Source of the DNA: Paraspadella gotoi
Taxonomy: Eukaryota; Animalia; Chaetognatha
NCBI GenBank assembly: GCA_051294375.1
Contig: JBJCIZ010000761.1
Location: forward strand, 1-14,224
Reading direction: 5' to 3'
DNA: 14,224 nt
Part shown: positions 1,620 to 14,224 of the stretch, in pieces
How the letters are laid out: every line of letters starts with the position of its first letter
How positions within the stretch are numbered: position 1 is the stretch's first letter
Notes under the pieces: generated by a model
Database searches by the model: none
Told to the model about the DNA's origin: nothing
Seen by the model: only the letters and a program-made list of their open reading frames with translations
Translations under genes and position numbers: made by a program

Positions 1620-2112
1620 TGTAAGAGGTTTTCAGCAAAAATAATTCTAATATTGTAACTTGTAATGTGCCTAAATGATTATGGCTTCATTTTGGTACTA
1701 TTGGCCATCCCTGTATGCTTTGTTCCTTCAAGAGAATATCAGGAAAATCAGTTTTTTCTCTCACCTTCGCTATTTAGTAGCTGTCTTAGTTAGGCCTCAG
1801 GCTGGATTATAATCTATCCCAAACGCCAAGTTGATAACTAATTGTTGATGTAATCGTGCAATTGATGTGAGTTAAAAACCTTTAAACAAATTAATTATCA
1901 TTTCAAATAATTAATTCCTCAAAATCAATCCTTATTTCATACTTAGTTAACGTCATCCGGGGAGTAGAAAATTCAGTTTCTTCGTTAGCAGTGGGCGATC
2001 CCTGGCGTTCCAAAACGGTACTGATCTCCTCTAACACTTAGCAACGTTTCTAACAAAAGATCAAGTGTTTTCGTCGACGCCAGGTATTGCACGCGTACGA
2101 CCTCTCTTTACA
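1620..2112 (-). repeat. Probable 3' LTR (~493 bp)
   Basis: Starts TGTAAAGAGAGG and ends CCTCTTACA (imperfect terminal inverted repeat), with an internal TATA-like CTAAATAG. The partner LTR is not in the window, so the ends are unconfirmed. Confidence 0.5.
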
Positions 2113-2121
2113 CTCCCACCT
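2113..2121 (-). other. Polypurine tract (AGGTGGGAG) abutting 3' LTR
   Basis: Minus strand reads CAGGTGGGAG|TGTAAAG, a G-rich tract directly before TGT as in BEL elements. Confidence 0.6.
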
Positions 2122-2443
2122 GTACGTAACACGGACACTACAAACAAGAGAGGTCGTAGGCACCACTGTACTTCGCCCTATGGCAGTAGTCTTTGCTTCA
2201 GCATGGCAACCTCCTCTGCAAATTATCCCCAGAAAGTTCAATATCCCCTTCAGTCGTGTAGACCCATCTTGACGATCTTGTTGACAGCTCGTAACTCCGA
2301 TGAGGCTCCAATTCCAACCGGCGTCGTCGCTGCCCATTTGAAACAAAGCGAAGTCGCCCGGCGTCGAGCAGCATCATTCCCGGCCACGTTGTCACGATAA
2401 CGACTTGTCAACGACCCTGGGATCGTCTTCATGGCCGACGATG

Positions 2444-2692
2444 TAGCCGCCGCCGGCGTCGTCCCTTCGACGACGCCTCGAACGGCGGCTCTGCCTCGTT
2501 TTGTTAAGTTCCCGCGTTGACGCCCGTTTAGCCGGCACCAAGTCTTCATAACGATGTCCTTCTAGCCGCCGCCGGCGTCGCCCCCTTGACGACGCCTCGA
2601 ACGGCGGCGCCGCATCTTTGACGACGTCTCCTTCGTATCGTCCTATTAGCCGCCGCCGGCGTCGCCCCTCTGACGACGCCTCGAACGGCGGC
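2444..2692. repeat. Three 46-bp GC-rich direct repeats, each a hairpin (2444-2489, 2563-2608, 2647-2692)
   Basis: Consensus TAGCCGCCGCCGGCGTCG(t/c)ccc(ttc/ctt/tct)GACGACGCCTCGAACGGCGGC. GCCGCCG pairs with CGGCGGC and GGCGTCG pairs with CGACGCC. Confidence 0.92.
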
Positions 2693-3183
2693 ACTTCCTC
2701 CGGCTTGAGTTCTTTTCATTCCGGATCAGTGTGTGCGACTTCGTGCATGCAGTATAATTGATGTTGTATGATTTGGGTGTTGAAACCGATCGCCAACTGC
2801 TCTAACTCAGTTTATCTGGACTTGATCTTATGAGAGTCTTACTTCGATTGATGATCCGGTTTGGTTTCTTTGACCGTTTTCACTCTGGTCTTTTCTCTCC
2901 CCCTTCTTGTTTTTTACAAGAAATTTTGATTTGATTAGTTATGCACACTGTAAAGAGGAACGTAATGATTTGATATTTTGTTCCTTTGAATCACGAATAA
3001 TACAATAATACAATAAATATGTATGTAACAATAGTCATCGGTGTGTCCAGTTCATTTGTTCGTTGCTTAATTCCTTGACTCATTATCTCTACTGCATCAT
3101 TAATTTTCGTCAACCGTTGCTAGGCAACCTTCTTCTCCTCTTCTTATTTTTCGGCTCGGTTTTCTCTCGTCAACATCTCGCTC

Positions 3184-3186
<3 letters not shown>

Positions 3187-3215
<29 letters not shown>
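3187..3215 (-). repeat. Genomic poly(A) tract (29 nt) on the element sense strand
   Basis: T29 on the plus strand. The sense strand reads ATTAAAAATAAAAT immediately before it. Confidence 0.9.
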
Positions 3216-3217
<2 letters not shown>

Positions 3218-3516
3218 TTTATTTTTAATGTCTTTCGTTGTTCTTTTTCTCGTCGTTAAATTAGTTTATATTAAGTTTATTTGTTATGTTAGTTTTGTTC
3301 AAGATTAATTCAAATTTTTTTAAATTTTTCTTTTCTCAGTTTTCTCCCGTTATTATAGTCGTTTTTGTCATGGTACCGGGCATTGAAATATTAAATGCAA
3401 AAATTATGAATGTGCCTCCAGGCCATATGACTCGCCGACGAGGGTTTGGCGGTCGGCTCTGGAAGTGCCGGTCCGGGAAATCAGCTACACCAGATCCGAC
3501 AGTCTCTTAAGAAAGT

Positions 3517-4692
3517 TCAATTCGTTCTTTTCTTCGTCGCTTTCTTCGCCCATTCCGGATATCTTTCTCTCGGAGGAGGCGGAGGCGGCGGCGACATTGG
3601 CTGCAAGGTGGGAATCCTCCTTTTTGACGGAACCGGAACGCGAGAACGCGGCGGCGACCTCACGAAGTGTTCCATCCCTGCTGGTGGACGAAAAGAGGAA
3701 AGACGTAGATCCTGTTGCGGCGGAGATGGCGACCGTGGATGCGGACAAGACAGCGCTTCTATTTTCTCGTACATGCGTCCGCATGTTTGCGACCAAAGTC
3801 GCTCCGTCGTTGCCCGCCTCTGCTCTACCTCTCTCACGCGCCCTTCCAACTTCACCTCAGCTTGGATTCGTCTTTCCGTCTCTTTCTTGAGTTCCTGTTC
3901 GAGGCGCTCTATTTTTACGCGGAGATCGGCTTTTTCCATTTCCGCTCTCACGAGTTCCTGGCTTTGGCGACGGCATCTTTCCTCAAGCTTCGACCACCTG
4001 CTGCCGTCAAGATCCGTCTGTGATGCAGCCGAAAGTTTATTTTTCGTCTCTCCGGATGTCGTCGTTGTCGTTGCGTAGTCGACGGCCGGTCCAGATTTGT
4101 CAAAGATCACGACTCGAGTTGACGTCGCCGTTGGAGGTGGCGGCATGGTGGTCTCTGTAGTTGATTGTGATTGATGATTAGTCCGGATAACTTTGGCCAT
4201 CATTCGTAGCGTCTCCAGATCCGTCCCGTCGTTTATTGCCTTGATCAAGTCGTCGAATTCTGCTTCTCTCCATCCCCTGCATCTCGCCACCTTTCTCCAC
4301 GTTTTTTTTATTCTGCGTACCATTAGTTTATTTTCTTTCGTGATTTTAAAGTTTTTTAGGAAGAATGGCTCGTCGCCACTGTCGATCACTATTGGAACTG
4401 TAAAGTCAATTAATGCTCGTCGGTGCGGCGGTAGCGTTGACCTTTTGTTGAGGAATCTTGATGCAAAATCCTCGCCGTCTGCTGGAAATTGTTCCATGGT
4501 AGATGGCGCCGCAATTTCCTCGATCGACGCCGACGTAGCCAAAGAAATTGTCTCTGTTTCGTCCAGGGATATGCCGGGCTCCCTGAAGTCCCGTGCGAAT
4601 GGGAATTCCCCGAACATCTCCGCTTTTTCTTGGTCCGACGGCGCCCACATGACAGAGTCTAAATTGATGTCCATGTTGGAATATGATTCCAT
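3517..4692 (-). CDS. Accessory ORF7, ~391 aa soluble protein (acidic N-term, globular core, Thr/Pro linker, coiled coil, Pro/Arg-rich basic tail); not env-like
   Basis: Long open frame. The likely start is ATG 4692 (MESYSNM), after acceptor-like TTGTTCACTTATTATAG (4743-4744) and GCTTTCAG (4731-4732). No signal peptide or TM segment is visible. Confidence 0.75.
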   Translation of the reverse strand: MESYSNMDINLDSVMWAPSDQEKAEMFGEFPFARDFREPGISLDETETISLATSASIEEIAAPSTMEQFPADGEDFASRFLNKRSTLPPHRRALIDFTVPIVIDSGDEPFFLKNFKITKENKLMVRRIKKTWRKVARCRGWREAEFDDLIKAINDGTDLETLRMMAKVIRTNHQSQSTTETTMPPPPTATSTRVVIFDKSGPAVDYATTTTTSGETKNKLSAASQTDLDGSRWSKLEERCRRQSQELVRAEMEKADLRVKIERLEQELKKETERRIQAEVKLEGRVREVEQRRATTERLWSQTCGRMYEKIEALSCPHPRSPSPPQQDLRLSSFRPPAGMEHFVRSPPRSRVPVPSKRRIPTLQPMSPPPPPPPRERYPEWAKKATKKRTN

Positions 4693-4995
4693 CGCTATTT
4701 GTTGAATTTGGGATGTAGAATGTATTATATCTGAAAGCTTTCCTATAATAAGTGAACAATAAAAGAATGTATGGTAAATAAACATCGAGTCAAATTTCTT
4801 TTTACGATCAATGGACACTGTAATTGAGTTTATTGCAATTTAAGTATATCACATCTTTTACTTTTCAAACTCGGCCGGACTTTTCGTTTTTGCTCCGTTT
4901 TGATTCTGAATCACGTTGACTGGTAATGCTGGAACGACTTTATAATTTAAATTTAGATTGAGTTAATAACTTTGAAACTCTAGTTAACTATATAG

Positions 4996-5245
4996 CTAGT
5001 TTTTGCTTTTACTTATCGATCTAAATTCTGATTCGAAATTTTTCGAGTGTCTTTTGTCTATTTTTTCGCCCTCTACATTTCTCAGAAAAGTTTCTTCGAA
5101 CTTATCGCTTTTTGCCTTTAAGCGTCCTCAACTCGTCATTCATGTGGATGCTTGGGCGGTTTTTGTCCACTGACTTCGTTACAGCAACTTCCTTTACGAG
5201 GATGCCAAATCTTCCGAACTTTAACGCGATCTGTGAGATGTCCAT
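4996..5245 (-). pseudogene. Accessory ORF6, absent from ORF track: 47 aa as read (5102-5245), ~82 aa if one extra A near 5120 is removed
   Basis: MDISQIALKFGRFGILVKEVAVTKSVDKNRPSIHMNDELRTL, then KAKSDKFEETFLRNVEGEKIDKRHSKNFESEFRSISKSKN* in the shifted frame. Preceded by TTTATACTTGCCTTTAG (AG at 5259-5260). Confidence 0.5.
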
Positions 5246-5340
5246 TTCACTATTGAAACTAAAGGCAAGTATAAACGAAAATATAAATACGGTTCAACAC
5301 GATTCCAATATTTGAATGTTTTTTTTTTATGTCGGGTATT

Positions 5341-5652
5341 TCACGGCGTTTTGATATCTTTGACTTTATCTTTCGTTTGTTTTGAGAAGATCTTATTCTC
5401 AGCTTCCATAATATCGGCCCATCTGTCCAAGTTCTTAATTCTCCATTCATATTCTTCAGACTCTTTTTCCATCGGGAAACCGTGTGCGATGTAATTGTAA
5501 AATAATGATTCTAGTTTATCTCTATTCGCATTTCTTTTTTCCAGCGTGTCTTCAAGGTTATCCGGCGTCATCGCTGCGACTCTGGCTCTCTGTTGGATCC
5601 GAAAGCTCTGTGACTTTCCCGTCTCGTATTCGGTAAGTTCAGATTTGTTCAT
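5341..5652 (-). CDS. Accessory ORF5, 103 aa helical protein
   Basis: AAAAATG start 21 nt after CTTATTCAG (AG at 5674-5675). Shares a motif with ORF4. Confidence 0.65.
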   Translation of the reverse strand: MNKSELTEYETGKSQSFRIQQRARVAAMTPDNLEDTLEKRNANRDKLESLFYNYIAHGFPMEKESEEYEWRIKNLDRWADIMEAENKIFSKQTKDKVKDIKTP

Positions 5653-5722
5653 TTTTGTTTAAATGTCAATACACTGAATAAGTAGCGCTCAAAAAAAAAC
5701 GAACATAATAATAAATGATATT

Positions 5723-6004
5723 TTATTCGAGATTTGGTCTGTTTTGGTATTTCTTGTCTTTTGTGTGGTTCCTCATCGCTTTTTGGAATTTGGAGAAAAT
5801 TCGTTCTTGGGCGAATCTTACCTCGATCCATCTATCGTAGTACTTATTCTGTTCATTTAAATCGGCTTCTAATTGTTTCACTTTTTCTTTGTCATGATTG
5901 TATTTTTCCAATTGTTTTTTAATGTATTTTTCGTAAGAATCTTTCATCTTCATGGCATCTTCTACTGATTGTGGTGTGCAGTCGGCTTCTAGACACCATG
6001 TCAT
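5723..6004 (-). CDS. Accessory ORF4, ~93 aa helical protein (MTWCLEAD...)
   Basis: First in-frame ATG at 6004, downstream of CGTTCGTTCAG (AG at 6033-6034). Shares a DRW-x5-A-x3-IFSK motif with ORF5. Confidence 0.65.
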   Translation of the reverse strand: MTWCLEADCTPQSVEDAMKMKDSYEKYIKKQLEKYNHDKEKVKQLEADLNEQNKYYDRWIEVRFAQERIFSKFQKAMRNHTKDKKYQNRPNLE

Positions 6005-6061
6005 TGTTTCACATCGAAATTTGATCACTTCACTGAACGAACGGTAACAATTTTTGATATT

Positions 6062-6457
6062 CTACTTTCTCGTGGTTTCGACTTTCTTCTCGAGAGTTTT
6101 GATTTTTTCATCGATCTCTTTCTTCTCCTTTTCTAGACGGACTAATATTTCTTCATATATCCAAGAATTTACATACTTTTTTTCAGCTTCAAGGATTTCT
6201 GCTCCTTCTGTTTTTCTTTGTAGCAGGTTGTCTCTCTTTGCTTTGGCCCTTTCTAACGCCTTTTCCGGTGCGCTGGACTCTTCTTCAATTTCTGTTTGTC
6301 TTTTTTCGATCTCTTTTAATTCTACTTCGGGAAGGATTAGTTTTCGAGTAAGATTGATTGACTCTTGATATTCGCCTTTTTTCCATAATTCATGTCCTTT
6401 TTCCCATTCTTTACTAAGTTCATATCGTTTGTCTTTGAAACCTTTTGCAAGGTCCAT
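6062..6457 (-). CDS. Accessory ORF3, ~131 aa coiled-coil-like protein (MDLAKGF...)
   Basis: ATG at 6457 (AAAATG context) lies 5 nt after TTACTTTCTCAG. Confidence 0.65.
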   Translation of the reverse strand: MDLAKGFKDKRYELSKEWEKGHELWKKGEYQESINLTRKLILPEVELKEIEKRQTEIEEESSAPEKALERAKAKRDNLLQRKTEGAEILEAEKKYVNSWIYEEILVRLEKEKKEIDEKIKTLEKKVETTRK

Positions 6458-6536
6458 TTTGGCTGAGAAAGTAATTTTAATTAACGATAACATAACATTG
6501 TTTTTACCAACTGTGATAAACTATTTCACTATATTT

Positions 6537-6896
6537 TTAGATCATCGATTTCTGGATGTTTTTCAGTTTTTTTGTTGTTTCACTGATCTTTTTCTGGGTT
6601 CTTTCTTCGATTATACCGAAGATTTTTTCTCTTTCCGTATGGGTCTCTTTGGCTTTTTTAATGTTTTCTTTGAGCTGCGTCCACTCTTCGATTTTTTTCT
6701 CCAGTTTGGACATTGCTCTGTCTGGATGCTTTTTCACTTCCATCTCTTCCTCCTCGTTCTTCACTTTCAGCTTCAACTCTCTTTCGTTCATGACCAGTTC
6801 GAACACTTCTCTCCAATTATCTTTTCCTTCTTTCTCCCCCGCCAGTCTCTCCCACCTTCTTTCTATTTCCATCCATTTCTCATTCGCCGTTTCCAT
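6537..6896 (-). CDS. Accessory ORF2, ~119 aa coiled-coil-like protein (METANEKW...)
   Basis: ATG at 6896 lies 5 nt after TATTATTACAG. E/K-rich amphipathic sequence. Confidence 0.65.
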   Translation of the reverse strand: METANEKWMEIERRWERLAGEKEGKDNWREVFELVMNERELKLKVKNEEEEMEVKKHPDRAMSKLEKKIEEWTQLKENIKKAKETHTEREKIFGIIEERTQKKISETTKKLKNIQKSMI

Positions 6897-6966
6897 GGTA
6901 ACTGTAATAATACGTGAACGCAATTATCAAAACGAATTTTTATTATACGGATGTTTTTTGATTTCA

Positions 6967-7449
6967 TCATTTCGTTTTAATTTTTCTTCTAATCAGGAAT
7001 AGTCTCTTGTTTCTTTTTTTTGTTCTTTCTTTATCCTCGTCGTGTCTGTTGGTGGTTTCGTCTGTTTCTTCGGGGATGGTCAGTTCTTGTGGTTTCGGCG
7101 TTGTTTGTTGTTCGTTTTTTGGTTTTCTCGACATTCTCTTTGCAATGGAATTCCTCGTCTCCTCGTCGAATTCCTCCTCCGGGATCTTGTATATCTTTTT
7201 GTAAATTGTCTCTTCGTCGTCTACGGGCAATGGTGGCGGAACGTAAATGCCTTTTAGTTCTTTAGTAAGTTCCGTTATCATTTGTCTTCTCCGCCTGACT
7301 GCGTCTAGTATTATGTTTATTTCTGTGGTTGGTGCGTATCCCCATGATTGTACGGCTTCTACCTCCTCCCATAATTCCTTCACCATCTTGTCGATTGATG
7401 ATCTCAACTGTCTCTCAAAACATCCTTTTACAAATAGTTCGATGTTCAT
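6967..7449 (-). CDS. Accessory ORF1, 160 aa, unknown function (helical N-half, acidic/basic tail)
   Basis: ATG-initiated ORF ~150 nt after the pol stop, same strand, with K/E-rich composition like pol. The C-terminus may be altered by an A-run indel near 7015. Confidence 0.65.
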   Translation of the reverse strand: MNIELFVKGCFERQLRSSIDKMVKELWEEVEAVQSWGYAPTTEINIILDAVRRRRQMITELTKELKGIYVPPPLPVDDEETIYKKIYKIPEEEFDEETRNSIAKRMSRKPKNEQQTTPKPQELTIPEETDETTNRHDEDKERTKKRNKRLFLIRRKIKTK

Positions 7450-7601
7450 CTTTTCGATGCTTGTTATTCTCTATGTTTGCATGATTTTCGTATTGACATT
7501 TAATTATTCAATTTGTCTATTAGATTCTTTTCAAACAAATTCAATCTACCGTTCAAGTTTTTAGCTGATTTTTTATGTTTTTCTTTTTTCGGTTGACAGT
7601 T

Positions 7602-8099
7602 TTATTCCAACTCCAGTTGGACCAACGCATTGTGATGTCGTCGAAATGTTCTCCCGTCGGCGAGTCGGACGATTGCTTCTCTTTTGAGCGGGCCGTCTCC
7701 TTTCATCTCGGTGACTCTGCCCGTTCTCCACTGATCCCGCGGTGCGTTCGGCTCGACGAGCATTCGACGACTTGGCCCTCTTTCAGGTTTTCTGCCGAGT
7801 TTCGCCATTTTGTTCTTTCCTGTAATGAGATCAAATATTCTGTATGCCATCTTTTCCAGAATTCGTCAGCCACCTCTCTCACTTGTCTCCAAGCTGCCTT
7901 CATACAGTCTCCTTCTGCTGCTGCATATGGTAATAATGTTAATGATGTTGAGGTGAATAGATATGGATATAAAAAAATTGATGGCGACAGCGCTACTTCG
8001 CTTTTGGGATCGGATGACTCAAATGTTAATGGGCGTCGATTTAATATACCTGCGGTTTCACTTAGGATCGTCGCGAAGGTGTCGACGTCCAATTCGTTT
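7602..8099 (-). pseudogene. pol: Integrase C-terminal part of pol, split by two frameshifts (~8097-8099 and ~7764-7765)
   Basis: ILNRRPLT...LSPS...FWKRWHTEYLISLQERTKW...LKEGQVV (frame of 7703-8161), then MLVEPNAPRDQWRTGRV...RRHHNALVQLELE* (frame of 7602-7850). This is the typical BEL integrase tail. Confidence 0.9.
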
Positions 8100-11000
8100 G
8101 CATGACGGCTTTGAGGTGCTTCTTTGTTTCGCGGATCATCCTTTCCCACGCACCTCCCCAATGAGGAGCGTTTGGCGGTCCGAAAGTCCAGGTGATGCCC
8201 TTTTTGGCTATTCCTTCGTTGACTTTGGTGTCTTCTTGAAGGTGTTGAAGTTGTTTCTCGATTTCGTTGCTGGCGCCTACGAGATTGGTGCCGTTGTCTG
8301 ATACGAATGTCCGTACTCCTGGATAAACATTTTTAAATCTTATTAATGCGCTAAGCATAGATTGAGATGACATGTCTTTTAAGATTTCGAACGCTACTGC
8401 TCGTGTCGTCAGACAAGTGAATATAACGACATTCTTTTTGTTTAGTCCCCGCCCGGCGTGCTTCACCTGAAATGGGCCAAAACAGTCAAGTCCTGTGACT
8501 TCGAATGGGATTGTCTCGTTCACTCGAAATTCTGGATGTTCGGCCATTTTCTGCGGTGACGGGACTTTCAAGTTTCTTTGGCAATTCAAACATCGACGGA
8601 CGATCTTTTCCACTGCGGGTCTTCCTCCCAATAAGGTAAATTTCTGTCTGAGCGAATGAAATGTTGCGCATGCTCCGGAGTGGTATAATGTCACATGTTC
8701 ATGGCGTATCAACGACTCTACGTTTTCTTCATCTTTAGGTAATATGATGGGATGTTTGGTATGATATGGTAGGCCTTTTGAGTTCCCCAACCTTCCTCCA
8801 GTCCTCATTATTCCTTCTTCGTCTATAAATGGGCTCAATGCAATGATTCTCGAATTTCTGTGTCTTAACTCTCTGTGTGAATTTGGCGTCATTACTCCCA
8901 GTTTGAGCAACTCGAATATTTCCTTTTCAAATTTCTTTCTTTGAATAGCTTTGATTAATTTCATTTCGGCTTTTTTAAAGTCTTCTCCTGTCATCATGAT
9001 TTGTTTTCTTTCAATCTTTTCCCCTTTTTTCTCGCGAATTCGACTTTCGACTAGTCCTTTCACGGCTTTTGCAACGTATGCTATTCTTCTTACTTTTTTT
9101 GTCCACTCGCTAATTTTTTCGGTCGCTGTCAGCACCCAATCTTCGCGTTCTTTGCCGATCTCTTTCTTTGGGTATTCTCGCGTCGAATTTGCAAAAATTA
9201 ACTCCATTGGGCTATATTCACTATCATCATGAATCGCGGTTATATTTACTACCGTTTCTTCTTTCTTTTTCTTTAGTTTGTCTAAGTCTTCAGTGACTGG
9301 CCATTCCTCTTTCTTTTTACTAAGCCATTCGGGGCCTTTGTGGAACTTCTTCCAGTTTTCTGTGTCATCTGCGTCGACTCCACGACTTGTGAGATCTGCC
9401 GGGTTTTCTTGTGAAGGTACATATTTCCATTCATTCGGTCTTGATAACGATCGGATCGTTTTTAATCGGAAGTTTTCATATGTCTTAAATCTTTTCTTCC
9501 AATCTCTAATCCATCTTATCACCGTTATTGAGTCCGTGAGCATGTGAATTTCGTCAAACTCCTCTCCCGCTTCTCTAATCATAGTATCTCTTGTCTGTGC
9601 TGCTAATCTAGCCGCGTTCAGCTCTAGTCTTGGCATCGAGTCTCCATGATCCAACTGGTCTTCAATAATTATTTTTTCCTGCATCTTTACTGGAACCACA
9701 TGTGCTTTTGCGAATAATAGTGTTACGTGACTTTTTTCACTGCCCTTGTTTTCCTTCTTAATGTATATCGCCACCCCATAACCTTCACAACTCGCGTCGC
9801 AAAATACTATCAGCGTTGTCTTCACACAATCTAGCCCGATGATGCTCGTCCACCTCGGAATTCTTATTCGCTTCAAGAAATGCATCTTCTTCCTCCATTT
9901 GTCAAACGCTTCGAACAGCTCTTCCGGTAGTTTCTCATCCCAGTCCAATCCTTCCATTACCACTTTCTGGAAAATGCTTCGTCCTTTCAGCACGAAAGGT
10001 GCTACTAATCCCAGTGGGTCGAATACTGACGCCACTAATTTAAGCACGTCTCTCCTCGTCTTTGCCTCTTTTTTAGATTTTTCTGTGACACGCACAAAGA
10101 AAACGTCTCGTTTCGAGTTATAACCAGTTCCTAGTACTTTCGAATCGTGTTCTTCCATCGATGGATCTTCCGGCAGAGCGTTTCCGGCCAGTCCTTCAAG
10201 ATTGTCTTCTAAATCTTCCTCCAGTCCTTCGTCGACATCTTCGTTTGTCGACTCATCATTTTCGTTTTCTTCTGCTTTATCTAATAATATTTTTGGGTGA
10301 GATGCTTGCCACTTGGTTAATTCGAATCCTCCTCTTCTCATAGCCTCCGTCATATCTAGCCTCATTTTTCGAGCTTCTTTAATTCCATCTAAAGTGTCGA
10401 GATAATCGTCGACGTATACTTTTATGAAGAAGGCGATAATGACCTCTGGCGAAAATTCTCCGGTAAAGCTCAACCTTTTTCCATGGTACTGTAGCACGAA
10501 TGTAGCTACTCCCGGGCTTCCTGCTCCCCCGAATACATGTACTAGCGGCTCATGCACCTCCAACGTCTTCATCGATTCGTCTGTGTACCAATGATACCTG
10601 AAAGCGGCAACATCTTTTGGATGTAATTCAACTTGATGGAAAAATCCTTTAATGTCAGCAGAGATTGTATATCTTTTCCTCCTGAATTTTAACAGCATAC
10701 CGATCAGCGGAGTCAGGTTGTCCGGCCCCCCGATAAGATGGTCGTTTAGTGCGTTCCCGTTCACTTTTGATGCTGCGTCTTGGCAAATTCTGAACTTTCC
10801 CGGCTTGTCTGGTCTTGTGACGACTAGTAATGGCGCGAAACATTCTGGATTTCCCGGCGGTGGGTGGTCGGCTACAGCTTTTCTTGCATGACCCGATTCG
10901 ATTGTCTCTTTCATTGTCTTGAATACCCCTTCCTTCAGCACTGGATCTTTCCGCATCTTGTTCGCCAACTTTCGGGCGCGGCTCTCTGCGTTTTTTATGA

Positions 11001-11793
11001 CGTCATCTTTAACCGTCTCAAAAAATTCGGCAGTCTTTTCTCTTCCCTTTTTCCATGGGGATGGCGCGACATAGTGCCCAGTCTTTTCGTTAAAGTATAC
11101 CTCCTTCTCCAGCTGCTCCAATGCGTAACAATCTTCCGCCGACGGATGCTGCACCTCCGAAGGATATTTTTCTGTCCCTCTCATCAAGAAATCATGCCGG
11201 AACATCGACGCGATCATGTACTCTAACTTTTCGTGCTCGTGCGGTGTTGAACAACAACTAATATGGTCTCCGCTTTCGTTCTCACTTGCTCCTACTAATG
11301 TCCATCCAAACAAGGTTTTCAAAGCGACTGGATAACCTTCCGGTCCTTTTCTTATTTCTCCTCCGACCCACGTGTGCGCCAATCTTGCGTCAAGGATCAT
11401 CTCCACCGAATCGTCTTCTAAATCAGCGAATTCCACTCCTTTCATGTAATGATAGTCTTCGATCTCCTCGTTTCTCGTCGGTCGGTCAGTCTCCGTCGTG
11501 AGGACTTCTCCGACCATCACTTTTCTCATCTCTGTCGTGAATGTATCTTCTAAGTTAGAGATTTCGATGTCTCCGTAGTCCCTCCATGCTCTTGAAACTT
11601 TATCATATGTTGTTAAGTTAGTATACTCAGAATAAGTGGCTACATTTAGTTCTTCGGCTATTTTTATCGACATGGCGGAGCGGGTAGCGCCGCTGTCTAG
11701 TAATGCGTACGTAACGACCGATTTTTCACCATTTCTGACTACGACTGGAACGATCGGCCGGAATGCTCCTGTCGTCACGTACGCTGCCGCCAG
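8062..11793 (-). CDS. pol: Pol polyprotein: aspartic protease, reverse transcriptase, RNase H, integrase zinc finger and DDE core
   Basis: Protease YALLDSGA. RT KFRICQDAA, ADIKGFFHQV, VFGGAGSP, YVDD. RNase H VFCDAS, PRLEL, TDS, ENPADLTSRG. Integrase H-x4-H...CLNC, GLDCFGP, SDNGTNL, GGAWERM. The frame is open directly after the gag stop (CTG at 11793). Confidence 0.97.
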   Translation of the reverse strand: MAAAYVTTGAFRPIVPVVVRNGEKSVVTYALLDSGATRSAMSIKIAEELNVATYSEYTNLTTYDKVSRAWRDYGDIEISNLEDTFTTEMRKVMVGEVLTTETDRPTRNEEIEDYHYMKGVEFADLEDDSVEMILDARLAHTWVGGEIRKGPEGYPVALKTLFGWTLVGASENESGDHISCCSTPHEHEKLEYMIASMFRHDFLMRGTEKYPSEVQHPSAEDCYALEQLEKEVYFNEKTGHYVAPSPWKKGREKTAEFFETVKDDVIKNAESRARKLANKMRKDPVLKEGVFKTMKETIESGHARKAVADHPPPGNPECFAPLLVVTRPDKPGKFRICQDAASKVNGNALNDHLIGGPDNLTPLIGMLLKFRRKRYTISADIKGFFHQVELHPKDVAAFRYHWYTDESMKTLEVHEPLVHVFGGAGSPGVATFVLQYHGKRLSFTGEFSPEVIIAFFIKVYVDDYLDTLDGIKEARKMRLDMTEAMRRGGFELTKWQASHPKILLDKAEENENDESTNEDVDEGLEEDLEDNLEGLAGNALPEDPSMEEHDSKVLGTGYNSKRDVFFVRVTEKSKKEAKTRRDVLKLVASVFDPLGLVAPFVLKGRSIFQKVVMEGLDWDEKLPEELFEAFDKWRKKMHFLKRIRIPRWTSIIGLDCVKTTLIVFCDASCEGYGVAIYIKKENKGSEKSHVTLLFAKAHVVPVKMQEKIIIEDQLDHGDSMPRLELNAARLAAQTRDTMIREAGEEFDEIHMLTDSITVIRWIRDWKKRFKTYENFRLKTIRSLSRPNEWKYVPSQENPADLTSRGVDADDTENWKKFHKGPEWLSKKKEEWPVTEDLDKLKKKKEETVVNITAIHDDSEYSPMELIFANSTREYPKKEIGKEREDWVLTATEKISEWTKKVRRIAYVAKAVKGLVESRIREKKGEKIERKQIMMTGEDFKKAEMKLIKAIQRKKFEKEIFELLKLGVMTPNSHRELRHRNSRIIALSPFIDEEGIMRTGGRLGNSKGLPYHTKHPIILPKDEENVESLIRHEHVTLYHSGACATFHSLRQKFTLLGGRPAVEKIVRRCLNCQRNLKVPSPQKMAEHPEFRVNETIPFEVTGLDCFGPFQVKHAGRGLNKKNVVIFTCLTTRAVAFEILKDMSSQSMLSALIRFKNVYPGVRTFVSDNGTNLVGASNEIEKQLQHLQEDTKVNEGIAKKGITWTFGPPNAPHWGGAWERMIRETKKHLKAVMQTNWTSTPSRRS

Positions 11794-11796
11794 TCA
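11705..11796 (-). promoter_or_regulatory. Candidate gag-pol stop-codon readthrough signal (UGA-C, 9-nt spacer, 14-bp stem)
   Basis: mRNA reads UGA CUGGCGGCA GCGUACGUGACGAC ...52 nt... GUCGUUACGUACGC. The arms 11771-11784 and 11705-11718 pair 14/14 with one G-U. Confidence 0.65.
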
Positions 11797-13425
11797 GGAG
11801 GAGCTCTGATTTTGGTCAGTTTCCTCCCGATGTAGGGATGCGTGATGCCTCTGTCCGCATGTCTGGCACCCCATAAGATTTGAGCAAGTTCTTGCCATGT
11901 GACCTCGTCCGAAACATAATCTGCATAAACCTTTCTCTTTCATCCAATTTAATCTCTCGTCGACGTTCAACTCGAGAAACTTCGAACATACTCCCGTGAA
12001 GTGGTTTTTTTCACAAAAATCACATTTCGACTGTCTTGGCCCTCTTGGTGCGTGGTTATTTGGATCTGAATTCGGATTAGCAAAATTTCGATTCGCTGCA
12101 ATGGTTGCTTTCGACGCGCGGGTGGTCGTGGCTGCACGAACGGAAATATGGTTTCTAACGACTTCCCCTGATGTCCTCGCGCTGTTGTAATTAGACCCGC
12201 TCGGTTTGTCTCCCGACACGGTCCCTTGTTTCATCAGTATTCCCATCGTTTCTTTCGATCTAGTTACCTCTTTCACTATGTCTAAGAACTCTTCGAATTT
12301 CAACTCAAGATCGCCTTTCTTTCTGTCATCTCCCTTTAAAATGGCCAATTCATGTTTAGTCATTCTTTTTGCGACAGGATTAGCTAGAAATGGTAATTTT
12401 TTTGAGATGATCTCTATATAAGTTTCGCGAGTTGAAAAGGTTGCGGCACGGTTCGTCTCGATGGCTCTTTTATAAAACCTTTCCATCTCTAGTATAAATG
12501 TTCTTGCCCCCGTGAAATCCCTTTCGTTTATCTTCGGCCCTTTCAGAAGTTCCTCCAGCATCTGCTGCGCCGTGAAATTTTTACGCCCGAATTCTATCTC
12601 CAATGCTTTTTTTGCTTCTTTCAATGCCTCGGTATGGTTTCCCGATGCCTCATGTTGTGACACTATGATCCCAGCGTCCCCGTCGAAATACTCTTTTAGC
12701 TCAGACATTAATATTTCGTCCGTTACTCCCACCACTTTGCTCAACGACTCAAACAAGTTCAATTGTGATTCAAAGTCTACTCGTCGATCCTTTCCACTAA
12801 ATTTTAATTTCGGTCTTTTTTGTCTGACAATACTCAGCGCCTGCTGTTGAGTTTGTAAAATGCATAATTGTGTGAGTGCATTCTCATGTGAGGATTGGAA
12901 ATTAATTTTTTCTTCCTTATTTTTATTCCTCCCTCCCCCGTCCAGGTCCTCAACAAATGATTCGACAACAGACGACATCGTCGGGCGCGGCGCGCTGCGA
13001 CACGAACATTTGTGACACTCAGTTAACATCGACGAGTCCTCAACATTATGAACAGGGATCACGGAAGAAATGACCGGCGGATGTGTTGGCGTGAACGGCG
13101 GCGAGTGACTAATTGACTGTGTTACTATCGGTGACGTTGTGAAAACCGGCGGAGCGAGTATTGTCGGCGGCAACGATGGTAACGGGACCGGCGGTGGCAA
13201 TGTGACGGGCGGCGGCGGCGGTACTATCCGCGGCGGCGGCGCGATCGGCAACGGCGGTGACCCGGACGAAACTGGCGGTGGTTCGGACGAAACTTGCGGC
13301 AGCGCGGACGAACGGACGGCGGAGGAGGCGCGCATGGCGGCGATGAAGTAACGCGGCCGGCCGGCGGCGCAATAATGTTCTGTCGATTCTCGGCTTCTCC
13401 TCTTCTCCTCAAGTAAGTCCCTCAT
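11794..13425 (-). CDS. gag: Gag, main open segment (Pro-rich region, capsid-like DUF1759-type region, three zinc knuckles)
   Basis: C-terminal CDFCEKNHFTGVC, CRLCFGRGHMARTC and CQTCGQRHHASLH match the BEL/Pao triple-knuckle pattern. LKFSG...FE..L..F resembles the BEL gag core. Ends at TGA 11794-11796. The true start is upstream of 13425. Confidence 0.9.
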   Translation of the reverse strand: MRDLLEEKRRSRESTEHYCAAGRPRYFIAAMRASSAVRSSALPQVSSEPPPVSSGSPPLPIAPPPRIVPPPPPVTLPPPVPLPSLPPTILAPPVFTTSPIVTQSISHSPPFTPTHPPVISSVIPVHNVEDSSMLTECHKCSCRSAPRPTMSSVVESFVEDLDGGGRNKNKEEKINFQSSHENALTQLCILQTQQQALSIVRQKRPKLKFSGKDRRVDFESQLNLFESLSKVVGVTDEILMSELKEYFDGDAGIIVSQHEASGNHTEALKEAKKALEIEFGRKNFTAQQMLEELLKGPKINERDFTGARTFILEMERFYKRAIETNRAATFSTRETYIEIISKKLPFLANPVAKRMTKHELAILKGDDRKKGDLELKFEEFLDIVKEVTRSKETMGILMKQGTVSGDKPSGSNYNSARTSGEVVRNHISVRAATTTRASKATIAANRNFANPNSDPNNHAPRGPRQSKCDFCEKNHFTGVCSKFLELNVDERLNWMKEKGLCRLCFGRGHMARTCSNLMGCQTCGQRHHASLHREETDQNQSSS

Positions 13426-14224
13426 GAGCTTGACTAGAAATATCTTCCTCTTCTTTCCTTTCCTCCCTTTCCTTTCCTCCCTCTCACCGTAGTAATGATC
13501 GATTTGGGCACCGTCGTTTCCGGCGGAGATTCCTCAACGTGTGTCGCGTACGATCGGGTTGCGTTCCTCATGACGTTCGACGATCGGGCGTTCCTCGACG
13601 CGGCGCTCGCGATCGGCGTTCCTCAACATGACGTCCGCTCCGGCGACTCACGACGCTCCGACGTGACGCCTTCGTACGACCGCCGTCCGATCTACAAGAA
13701 TACAGGTCTTCTTCAGAGCTGTCTCCACTAATTCGTGATAATCTCTCTTTAACTGCCCTTTCCTTCTTTTCAATAGCCTTTCGTTGAAATTCGAATTCTA
13801 TTGCTTTCTCTCTTTTCCTTCTTCATTCTTTTCCTTTCCGCTTCTCTCATTTTTTCCTCTTTTCTCTTACGGATCTCCTTAATCTTTGCTTCTAACGCTT
13901 CTTCTTCTCTCTTTCGAATCTCCTTCATCTTCGCCTCCAGAGCTTCCTCTTCTTCTCTGCTCTCTCGTTCTACTCTCCTTCTTTCTTTCTCAATCTTATT
14001 CTTTTCTTTCGCTTCCTCAAATGCACGACGCTCATCTTCAACTCTCTCTAGGTCGAGAACCAACCTCTGGCGGATCGTCTCTTGAGACGATCGGGATGAC
14101 TTTGTTACCGACGTTCCCCCGTTTTTCGACGATCTGACGCTCACGCTCGACGGTTCCAAATACGCGGAGATGCCCGTAGCGGATTTCGGCGACGTACATA
14201 CGGACGGAGATGTTGCCACCCAGT
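13426..14224 (-). pseudogene. gag: Frameshift-broken 5' part of gag (Ser-rich then E/K/R coiled coil)
   Basis: ORF 13770-14219 is open to the window edge. Protein-like text continues in shifted frames (EKAIEFEFQRKAIEKKERAVKERLSRISGDSSEED..., VEERPIV-type repeats, VEESPPETTVPKS) down to 13425. It needs several indels to join. Confidence 0.7.
13863..13952 (-). repeat. 45-bp in-frame tandem duplication in gag (EEEALEAK[M/I]KEIRKR x2)
   Basis: Two adjacent 15-codon copies, seen directly in the translation. Confidence 0.9.

Follow-up and report, generated by a model that had tools for sequence, protein, structure and literature searches.

How can a single retrotransposon express seven extra genes? 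Elements with long terminal repeats (LTRs) are limited in gene number by their single promoter, and the known solutions yield one extra gene. A 14,224-nt stretch of DNA from the chaetognath Paraspadella gotoi (contig JBJCIZ010000761.1, assembly GCA_051294375.1) raises the question; this whole stretch is the window, and its forward numbering is used throughout. Its domains mark it as a Bel/Pao LTR retrotransposon whose sense strand is the minus strand and whose 5' end lies outside the window. Between pol and a polypurine-like run at 2892-2917 lie seven same-strand, non-overlapping open reading frames (ORFs). An earlier note on this DNA proposed that acceptor-like sites resolve this cassette into single-gene mRNAs. 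The best explanation, at a probability of roughly 0.4, appears to be a polycistronic RNA resolved by the host's spliced-leader (SL) trans-splicing. The site array itself is genuine and departs from chance, and it belongs to an element of an undescribed clade.

Acceptor-like sites in the accessory cassette

The interval 7601-5102 holds five ORFs of at least 90 aa; 1000 shuffles gave at most one. In-frame codon use resembles that of gag and pol for six of the seven (z 3.2-8.0), with ORF6 at z 1.9. All seven accessory ATGs carry a purine at -3, and such starts of their own favour separate cistrons. Stop-to-ATG distances are short, at 57-95 nt for ORF2 to ORF6 and 409 nt before ORF7. A reading of the ORFs as exons of one protein is rejected on account of their own start contexts, an in-frame stop in the ORF5 leader and the lack of strong donors at ORF ends.

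Eight site contexts quoted in the earlier note were recovered, all on the minus strand (Table 1). Six of them precede ORF2 to ORF7 and resemble acceptors, with AG-to-ATG leaders of 5, 5, 28, 21, 13 and 50 nt; the other two, at 4929 and 2948, are weak and head no ORF. The pre-site stretches of these six total 370 nt and contain 6 AGs where 14.4 would be expected (P 0.002). In five control stretches, the observed/expected values were 12/18.4, 19/17.9, 9/11.3, 24/20.5 and 17/15.7, so that one is also low and three show no AG deficit. The same pre-site stretches hold 14 copies of YGTT against 3.8 expected (0/5000 shuffles), all within 45 nt of the AG and between -42 and -7, whereas seven other non-coding stretches (1184 nt) hold 4 against 4.4 expected. 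The shared motif of the earlier note is enriched; because it recurs 2-3 times per site at varied positions, it is a scattered GU-rich signal and not a single positioned motif. AG depletion and YGTT clustering, together with the lack of a YGTT excess elsewhere, favour acceptor function.

YGTT followed by YAG, at most 55 nt before an ATG and with no intervening ATG, is found at 5/7 ORFs and at 13/197 other ATGs (for the ORFs, P is about 3e-4 when the same 85 nt are shuffled with dinucleotide composition kept). A leave-one-out matrix ranks the six sites 4, 29, 18, 2, 3 and 12 of 1012 AGs, which is partly an effect of T-richness. ORF1, as had been remarked before, has no clear site: its best candidate acceptor, at 7517, ranks 44 of 1017 AGs, two ATGs lie between this candidate and ORF1, and the ORF1 start is itself uncertain. 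Among the joints and loose ends listed for contigs of run X7, which is possibly RNA and also covers the flanking repeats, none falls at the six sites, an observation that carries no evidential weight. On balance, the six sites are probably spliceosomal acceptors, used in cis or in trans. The proposed monocistronic resolution holds in so far as ORF2 to ORF7 appear to be separate cistrons with 3' splice-site-like heads, marked by AG exclusion, a GU-rich patch, a purine at -3 and codon use; the splicing itself we infer.

A possible route through host trans-splicing

In the trans-splicing model, the six GU-rich, AG-free, YAG-ending sites would serve as 3' splice sites, and their partner would be a host SL RNA instead of a donor in the element. 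One polycistronic RNA would be cut into single-gene mRNAs, each upstream mRNA ending at or near the next acceptor in the fashion of tunicate operons. ORF1 would be the uncut first cistron, with its promoter probably close to where pol ends. A share of the full-length RNA would escape processing to supply the genome and the gag-pol message, and pol would be reached through TGA-CTG readthrough.

The layout of the cassette supports this model in several ways. A donor scan of 2000-14224 found none at 8/9 or more consensus positions and five at 7/9 within 2000-7700, which makes the ORFs unlike exons of one gene. At five junctions, the stop-to-AG distance is 29-82 nt, an operon-tight spacing that favours trans-splicing. 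A cis model would need an acceptor at ORF1 above all, and the lack of a good site there favours trans over cis. The poly(A) signals add little. AATAAA starts at 7606 (pol stop), 6944, 5727 (ORF4 stop), 4834, 3281 and 3223, and the earlier note was right to place it at the pol and ORF4 stops and after ORF1 and ORF6. Its presence in 5/8 junctions against 2.8 expected (P 0.047) nevertheless makes for a weak argument.

Several observations weigh against trans-splicing. AATAAA is not present after ORF2, ORF3 and ORF5, which are 3/8 junctions. The 5' LTR and leader, the expected place of a cis donor, lie outside the window. T follows the AG in 4/6 sites, whereas Oikopleura trans-splice AGs usually have an A there (PMC6389100). 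The YGTT-plus-YAG motif was defined post hoc, after the sites had been looked at, and a loose form of it has 26 minus-strand matches, 11 of them in gag/pol, and misses the site at 5674. The nematode Ur motif TAYYTT, located about 50 nt upstream of acceptors, has 2 matches (-11 and -25) against 2.0 expected, which is chance level. ORF4 is separated from its site by a leader that contains a start-stop ATG-TGA at 6014. Finally, the only clade relative with DNA beyond pol, locus L001, carries within those 140 nt (first 120 nt 47% T) a GTTCAG site with an ATG 5 nt on. It fits the acceptor pattern, but its weight is reduced because 27/71 loci match the loose pattern after pol; by matrix it ranks 10/71, where the 71 of 92 loci are those with a located pol stop and 120 nt beyond, a few of them probably mislocated to a neighbouring copy.

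Alternative explanations

The strongest competitor, although less probable, is that the sites act as conventional 3' splice sites in cis, with alternative splicing to them from a single 5'-leader donor as in complex retroviruses. Only the first ORF past each junction would be translated, and all mRNAs would end in the 3' LTR. The acceptor statistics fit this model equally well, and YGTTNAY words, found 5 times where 0.7 would be expected, look like branch sites, a likeness that rests on U2 pairing. The three bulged hairpins in the LTR-like 3' region bring to mind regulatory RNA elements of complex retroviruses. Moreover, cis-splicing is the usual route to a third gene, as for Tor3a env, Cer1 cerv and rotifer ORF3. 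The required donor could sit in the 5' leader outside the window; no strong donor was found inside it, where the best in the 3' LTR-like region scores 7/9 at 2119. The good acceptor missing at ORF1 counts against the cis model, which would also have to cope with AATAAA at several junctions inside the cassette, a marginal handicap.

It is improbable that the array is a relic, by-product or chance outcome, in which T-rich non-coding spacers were multiplied by tandem duplication of spacer plus ORF, or arrived as part of a captured host operon RNA, and in which the ORFs are either translated by reinitiation or left untranslated. In its favour, the probable paralogy of ORF4 and ORF5 means that the sites lack full independence, matches to the loose pattern are frequent, pol is disrupted in this copy, and a genomic A tract follows AATAAA beyond ORF7, as in a captured mRNA. 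Against these points, other non-coding stretches on the same strand show no YGTT excess, three of the five controls lack an AG deficit, and the ORFs are intact, have codon use in common with gag and pol, and include far more long frames than the shuffles.

TCAGT is the arthropod initiator. Least probable of all is an alternative that the earlier note itself named, a compact internal promoter in each spacer, with CAGT or TAGT as initiator and the GU/U-rich patch as a core-promoter signal or the upstream gene's 3'-end signal: it would explain the T after AG at 4/6 sites, the exact TCAGT at 2/6 (ORF4 and ORF5) and the TATA-like word that stands at -29 before ORF6, and Tor3b/4b env is a shown precedent (PMC4402516), but the ORF3 and ORF7 sites are unlike an initiator, a TATA-like word stands at a suitable distance in 1/6 sites only, and upstream AG depletion is not predicted.

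The element and its surroundings

The pol product matches Peptidase_A17, RVT_1, Integrase_H2C2 and DUF5641 in Pfam, and shows the order of protease, reverse transcriptase, RNase H and integrase together with the Pao-type domains. The gag ORF at 11794-13425 resembles the pre-pol region of 55 loci; a Pfam scan of gag gave no match. At 11791-11796, TGA-CTG joins gag and pol in one frame, and L001 (39% pol identity) carries the identical junction, in frame, at 1043-1048. Since this junction occurs in both elements and clade pols are separate ORFs, clade-wide stop readthrough from gag into pol is likely on sequence grounds. UGA-C is a leaky stop context. RNA folding after the gag stop found no stable structure (z -0.5). 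In this copy, the pol frame shifts near 8095-8098 and 7757-7763; relative to the window, contigs of run X1 show 4 gap letters and those of run X3 show 12, somewhere within 5319-10765, so the breaks may be assembly faults. CpG observed/expected is 0.9-1.5 in both element and flank, with no depletion.

Table 1. Features of the window; site offsets are relative to the AG.
Feature	Positions	Strand	Remarks
gag	11794..14224	minus	5' part beyond window edge; Cys/His knuckle region near C-terminus; TGA, then in-frame CTG and protease region
pol (PR-RT-RNaseH-IN-DUF5641, Bel/Pao type)	7602..11793	minus	Pfam matches and tblastn with P0001
ORF1	6967..7449	minus	160 aa; no family; lacks a good acceptor-like site; upstream ATGs at 7499 and 7482
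Site 1 (before ORF2)	6900..6945	minus	AG at 6903-6902; AG-free run 82 nt; YGTT at -33, -19
ORF2	6537..6896	minus	119 aa; K/E-rich; no family
Site 2 (before ORF3)	6461..6505	minus	G at 6463; AG-free run 46 nt; YGTT at -35, -30, -24
ORF3	6062..6457	minus	131 aa; K/E-rich; no family
Site 3 (before ORF4)	6031..6061	minus	G at 6033; AG-free run 27 nt; three YGTT
ORF4	5723..6004	minus	93 aa; probable ORF5 paralogue; AATAAA overlapping stop
Site 4 (before ORF5)	5672..5722	minus	G at 5674; T9 tract; AG-free run 12 nt, GAG 12 nt upstream; YGTT at -32, -28
ORF5	5341..5652	minus	103 aa; probable ORF4 paralogue
Site 5 (before ORF6)	5257..5300	minus	G at 5259; AG-free run 97 nt; YGTT at -41, -19; TATA-like word at -29
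ORF6	5102..5245	minus	47 aa; weakest coding signal (z 1.9)
Site 4929	4927..4940	minus	G at 4929; weak, heads no ORF; rank 35/1017 AGs; AG-free run 7 nt
Site 6 (before ORF7)	4729..4790	minus	G at 4743; second TTTCAG site at 4731; AG-free run 53 nt
ORF7	3517..4692	minus	391 aa; coiled-coil-like middle; Pro-rich end; no family
AATAAA and genomic A tract (about 30 nt)	3186..3229	minus	AATAAA immediately 5' of tract; inside element after ORF7, upstream of polypurine tract
Site 2948	2946..2962	minus	G at 2948; acceptor-like, heads no ORF; rank 13/1017 AGs; about 30 nt before polypurine tract
Polypurine-tract-like run	2892..2917	minus	matched by related contigs; joint 2794-2896
Three tandem hairpins	2444..2703	minus	57-nt units, 9+9 bp, 3-nt bulge, 5-nt loop; z -3.4 to -5.9; repeated LTR-like 3' region

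The accessory proteins resemble no described family in the searches made. Pfam, run on six of the ORFs (all except ORF6), gave no family above the cut-off, and an Rfam scan gave 0 matches. Homologue searches by alignment returned nothing usable for ORF2 to ORF5, with two repeat-protein matches only in a search for ORF3; for ORF7 they likewise returned nothing usable, and ESM Atlas gave values below 0.9 or none. A death-like domain guessed in ORF7 was dropped, as the structural model (predicted local distance difference test score 51, best Z 4.7) was uninformative. ORF4 and ORF5 (5341-6004) have a DRW...IFSK pattern in common, with a similarity z of 6.1, and are probable tandem paralogues.

Downstream of ORF7, the AATAAA with its A tract could be the mark of a captured polyadenylated RNA. 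The polypurine-like run is not followed directly by TG, and no TG start is found right after it in the LTR-like region (2050-2900), which also lacks AATAAA on the sense strand; the 5' end of the element is beyond the window. The hairpin region is far deeper in Logan contigs than the cassette, and joints in these contigs suggest that the number of hairpin units differs among relatives. An ATG-less 107-codon frame with repeated Arg runs crosses the hairpins on the minus strand (2392-2715) and is probably a by-product of the GC-rich repeat. The site at 2948 shows 73% likeness over 33 nt to the end of a flanking repeat (1592-1624). A different repeat of very high depth (in X3, about 50,000 compared with about 120) spans about 800-1950 and contains, near 1613-1624, an end like that of a Tc1/mariner-type miniature element.

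Relatives of the element

A protein search with pol returned 97 proteins, whose top 40 share 36-44% identity with it and include no named element; named insect Bel/Pao proteins among the matches reach 25-36%. In a FastTree phylogeny of 93 of the 98 sequences (five short ones excluded), the window pol falls inside a separate clade of 44 sequences with support 1.0 and no named member. The gag knuckle occurs on the pol protein in 0/40 top matches against 28/54 others, and pol in the clade forms an ORF of its own, about 1420 aa long. Eight of the top 40 matches lie on contigs of at least 10 kb, as do 6 of the 15 listed members of one cluster (10.3-10.8 kb), which leaves room for additional cargo. 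One cluster member is assigned to a SAR324 genome bin, which suggests marine samples.

Metagenome and genome scans yielded 92 loci, of which only L001 and L002 reach 39-40% identity; L001 stops 140 nt past pol, and L002 has no post-pol region. Relatives were not found in viral contigs. Thirteen contigs filed under prokaryote genomes (L080-L092) bear a Bel/Pao pol, which points to animal DNA inside those assemblies. Eight other Bel/Pao loci (L006, L016, L018, L025, L050, L052, L076 and L087) have a single long ORF of 583-1072 aa after the pol stop; some of these may be env-like and others the start of a neighbouring copy.

Implications

If host trans-splicing is the mechanism, genes could be added in series at the cost of a signal of about 40 nt each, which would explain the seven-gene cargo. 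It would be a third route of accessory-gene expression, beside cis-splicing and internal promoters, and would raise the question of how full-length genomic RNA evades six processing sites. The GU-rich, AG-free signal, with six copies in 2.2 kb, would also form a compact natural training set for the marks of trans-splice acceptors. Were the cis model to hold instead, an array of six acceptors in a Bel/Pao element would still be without a match in the searched literature. More tentatively, this unnamed, widespread Bel/Pao clade may consist of 'complex' retroelements with a self-built operon, combining a variable cassette that holds at least six orphan genes and use of the host spliced leader with stop readthrough and tandem bulged hairpins.

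Comparison with known systems

Like other Bel/Pao elements (Belpaoviridae), the window has a Pao peptidase/RNase H region, reverse transcriptase, integrase zinc finger and DUF5641 tail in the same order, but it carries seven small orphan ORFs where others have zero or one env-like ORF. Complex retroviruses of the HIV type have several small accessory ORFs, each with its own 3' splice site, and bulged hairpins in the terminal repeat. Unlike them, the window shows no env or tat/rev homology in the searches made, its ORFs do not overlap, and it shows no strong donor; in such viruses even the first accessory ORF has its own acceptor, but ORF1 has no good one.

Cer1 of C. elegans (Ty3/Gypsy) is an LTR retrotransposon in a trans-splicing host; its subgenomic spliced mRNA occurs with and without SL1, and its 8-kb RNA is not trans-spliced there (PMC3315495), so that an accessory mRNA takes SL1 and the long RNA skips the sites. 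Its one accessory protein, CERV, is produced by cis-splicing of five exons (PMC10309623), whereas the window has six tandem single-exon cistrons, each with its own site, in another superfamily. The Ty3/Gypsy-like Tor elements of Oikopleura likewise have a third gene beyond pol, which is reached by splicing in Tor3a and from a promoter in or after pol in Tor3b/4b (PMC4402516); they have one env gene, in contrast to seven ORFs without an env family match in a different superfamily. The third gene of rotifer elements, ORF3, is cis-spliced (PMC5408684), and LTR elements occasionally capture ORFs after pol (PMC6431247).

Host operons offer a parallel in layout. In nematode SL2 operons, the median distance between poly(A) site and acceptor is 129 nt, and the Ur motif is present (PMC7668243); the window departs from both: the nematode-type spacing of about 100-130 nt is not seen, and AATAAA, where present, stands 42-91 nt upstream of the acceptor. 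Ciona operon genes abut, with up to six per operon (PMC2760879), and trans-spliced Ciona genes are G+U/A+U-rich upstream of their first acceptors (PMC11155486). As in tunicate and nematode operons, the window has same-strand genes less than 100 nt apart; downstream operon genes are headed by an unpaired AG (PMC2760879), and acceptor-like statistics are found here at 6/6 downstream ORFs, whose 'unpaired' status turns on a 5' leader outside the window. Those operons consist of host chromosomal genes and not of a mobile element. In the literature searched, covering titles and abstract openings with few subscription papers, no Bel/Pao multi-acceptor cassette or retrotransposon-borne operon was found. 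Single-gene precedents exist in Cer1 and Tor, and no multi-gene array of this kind appeared in the searched literature.

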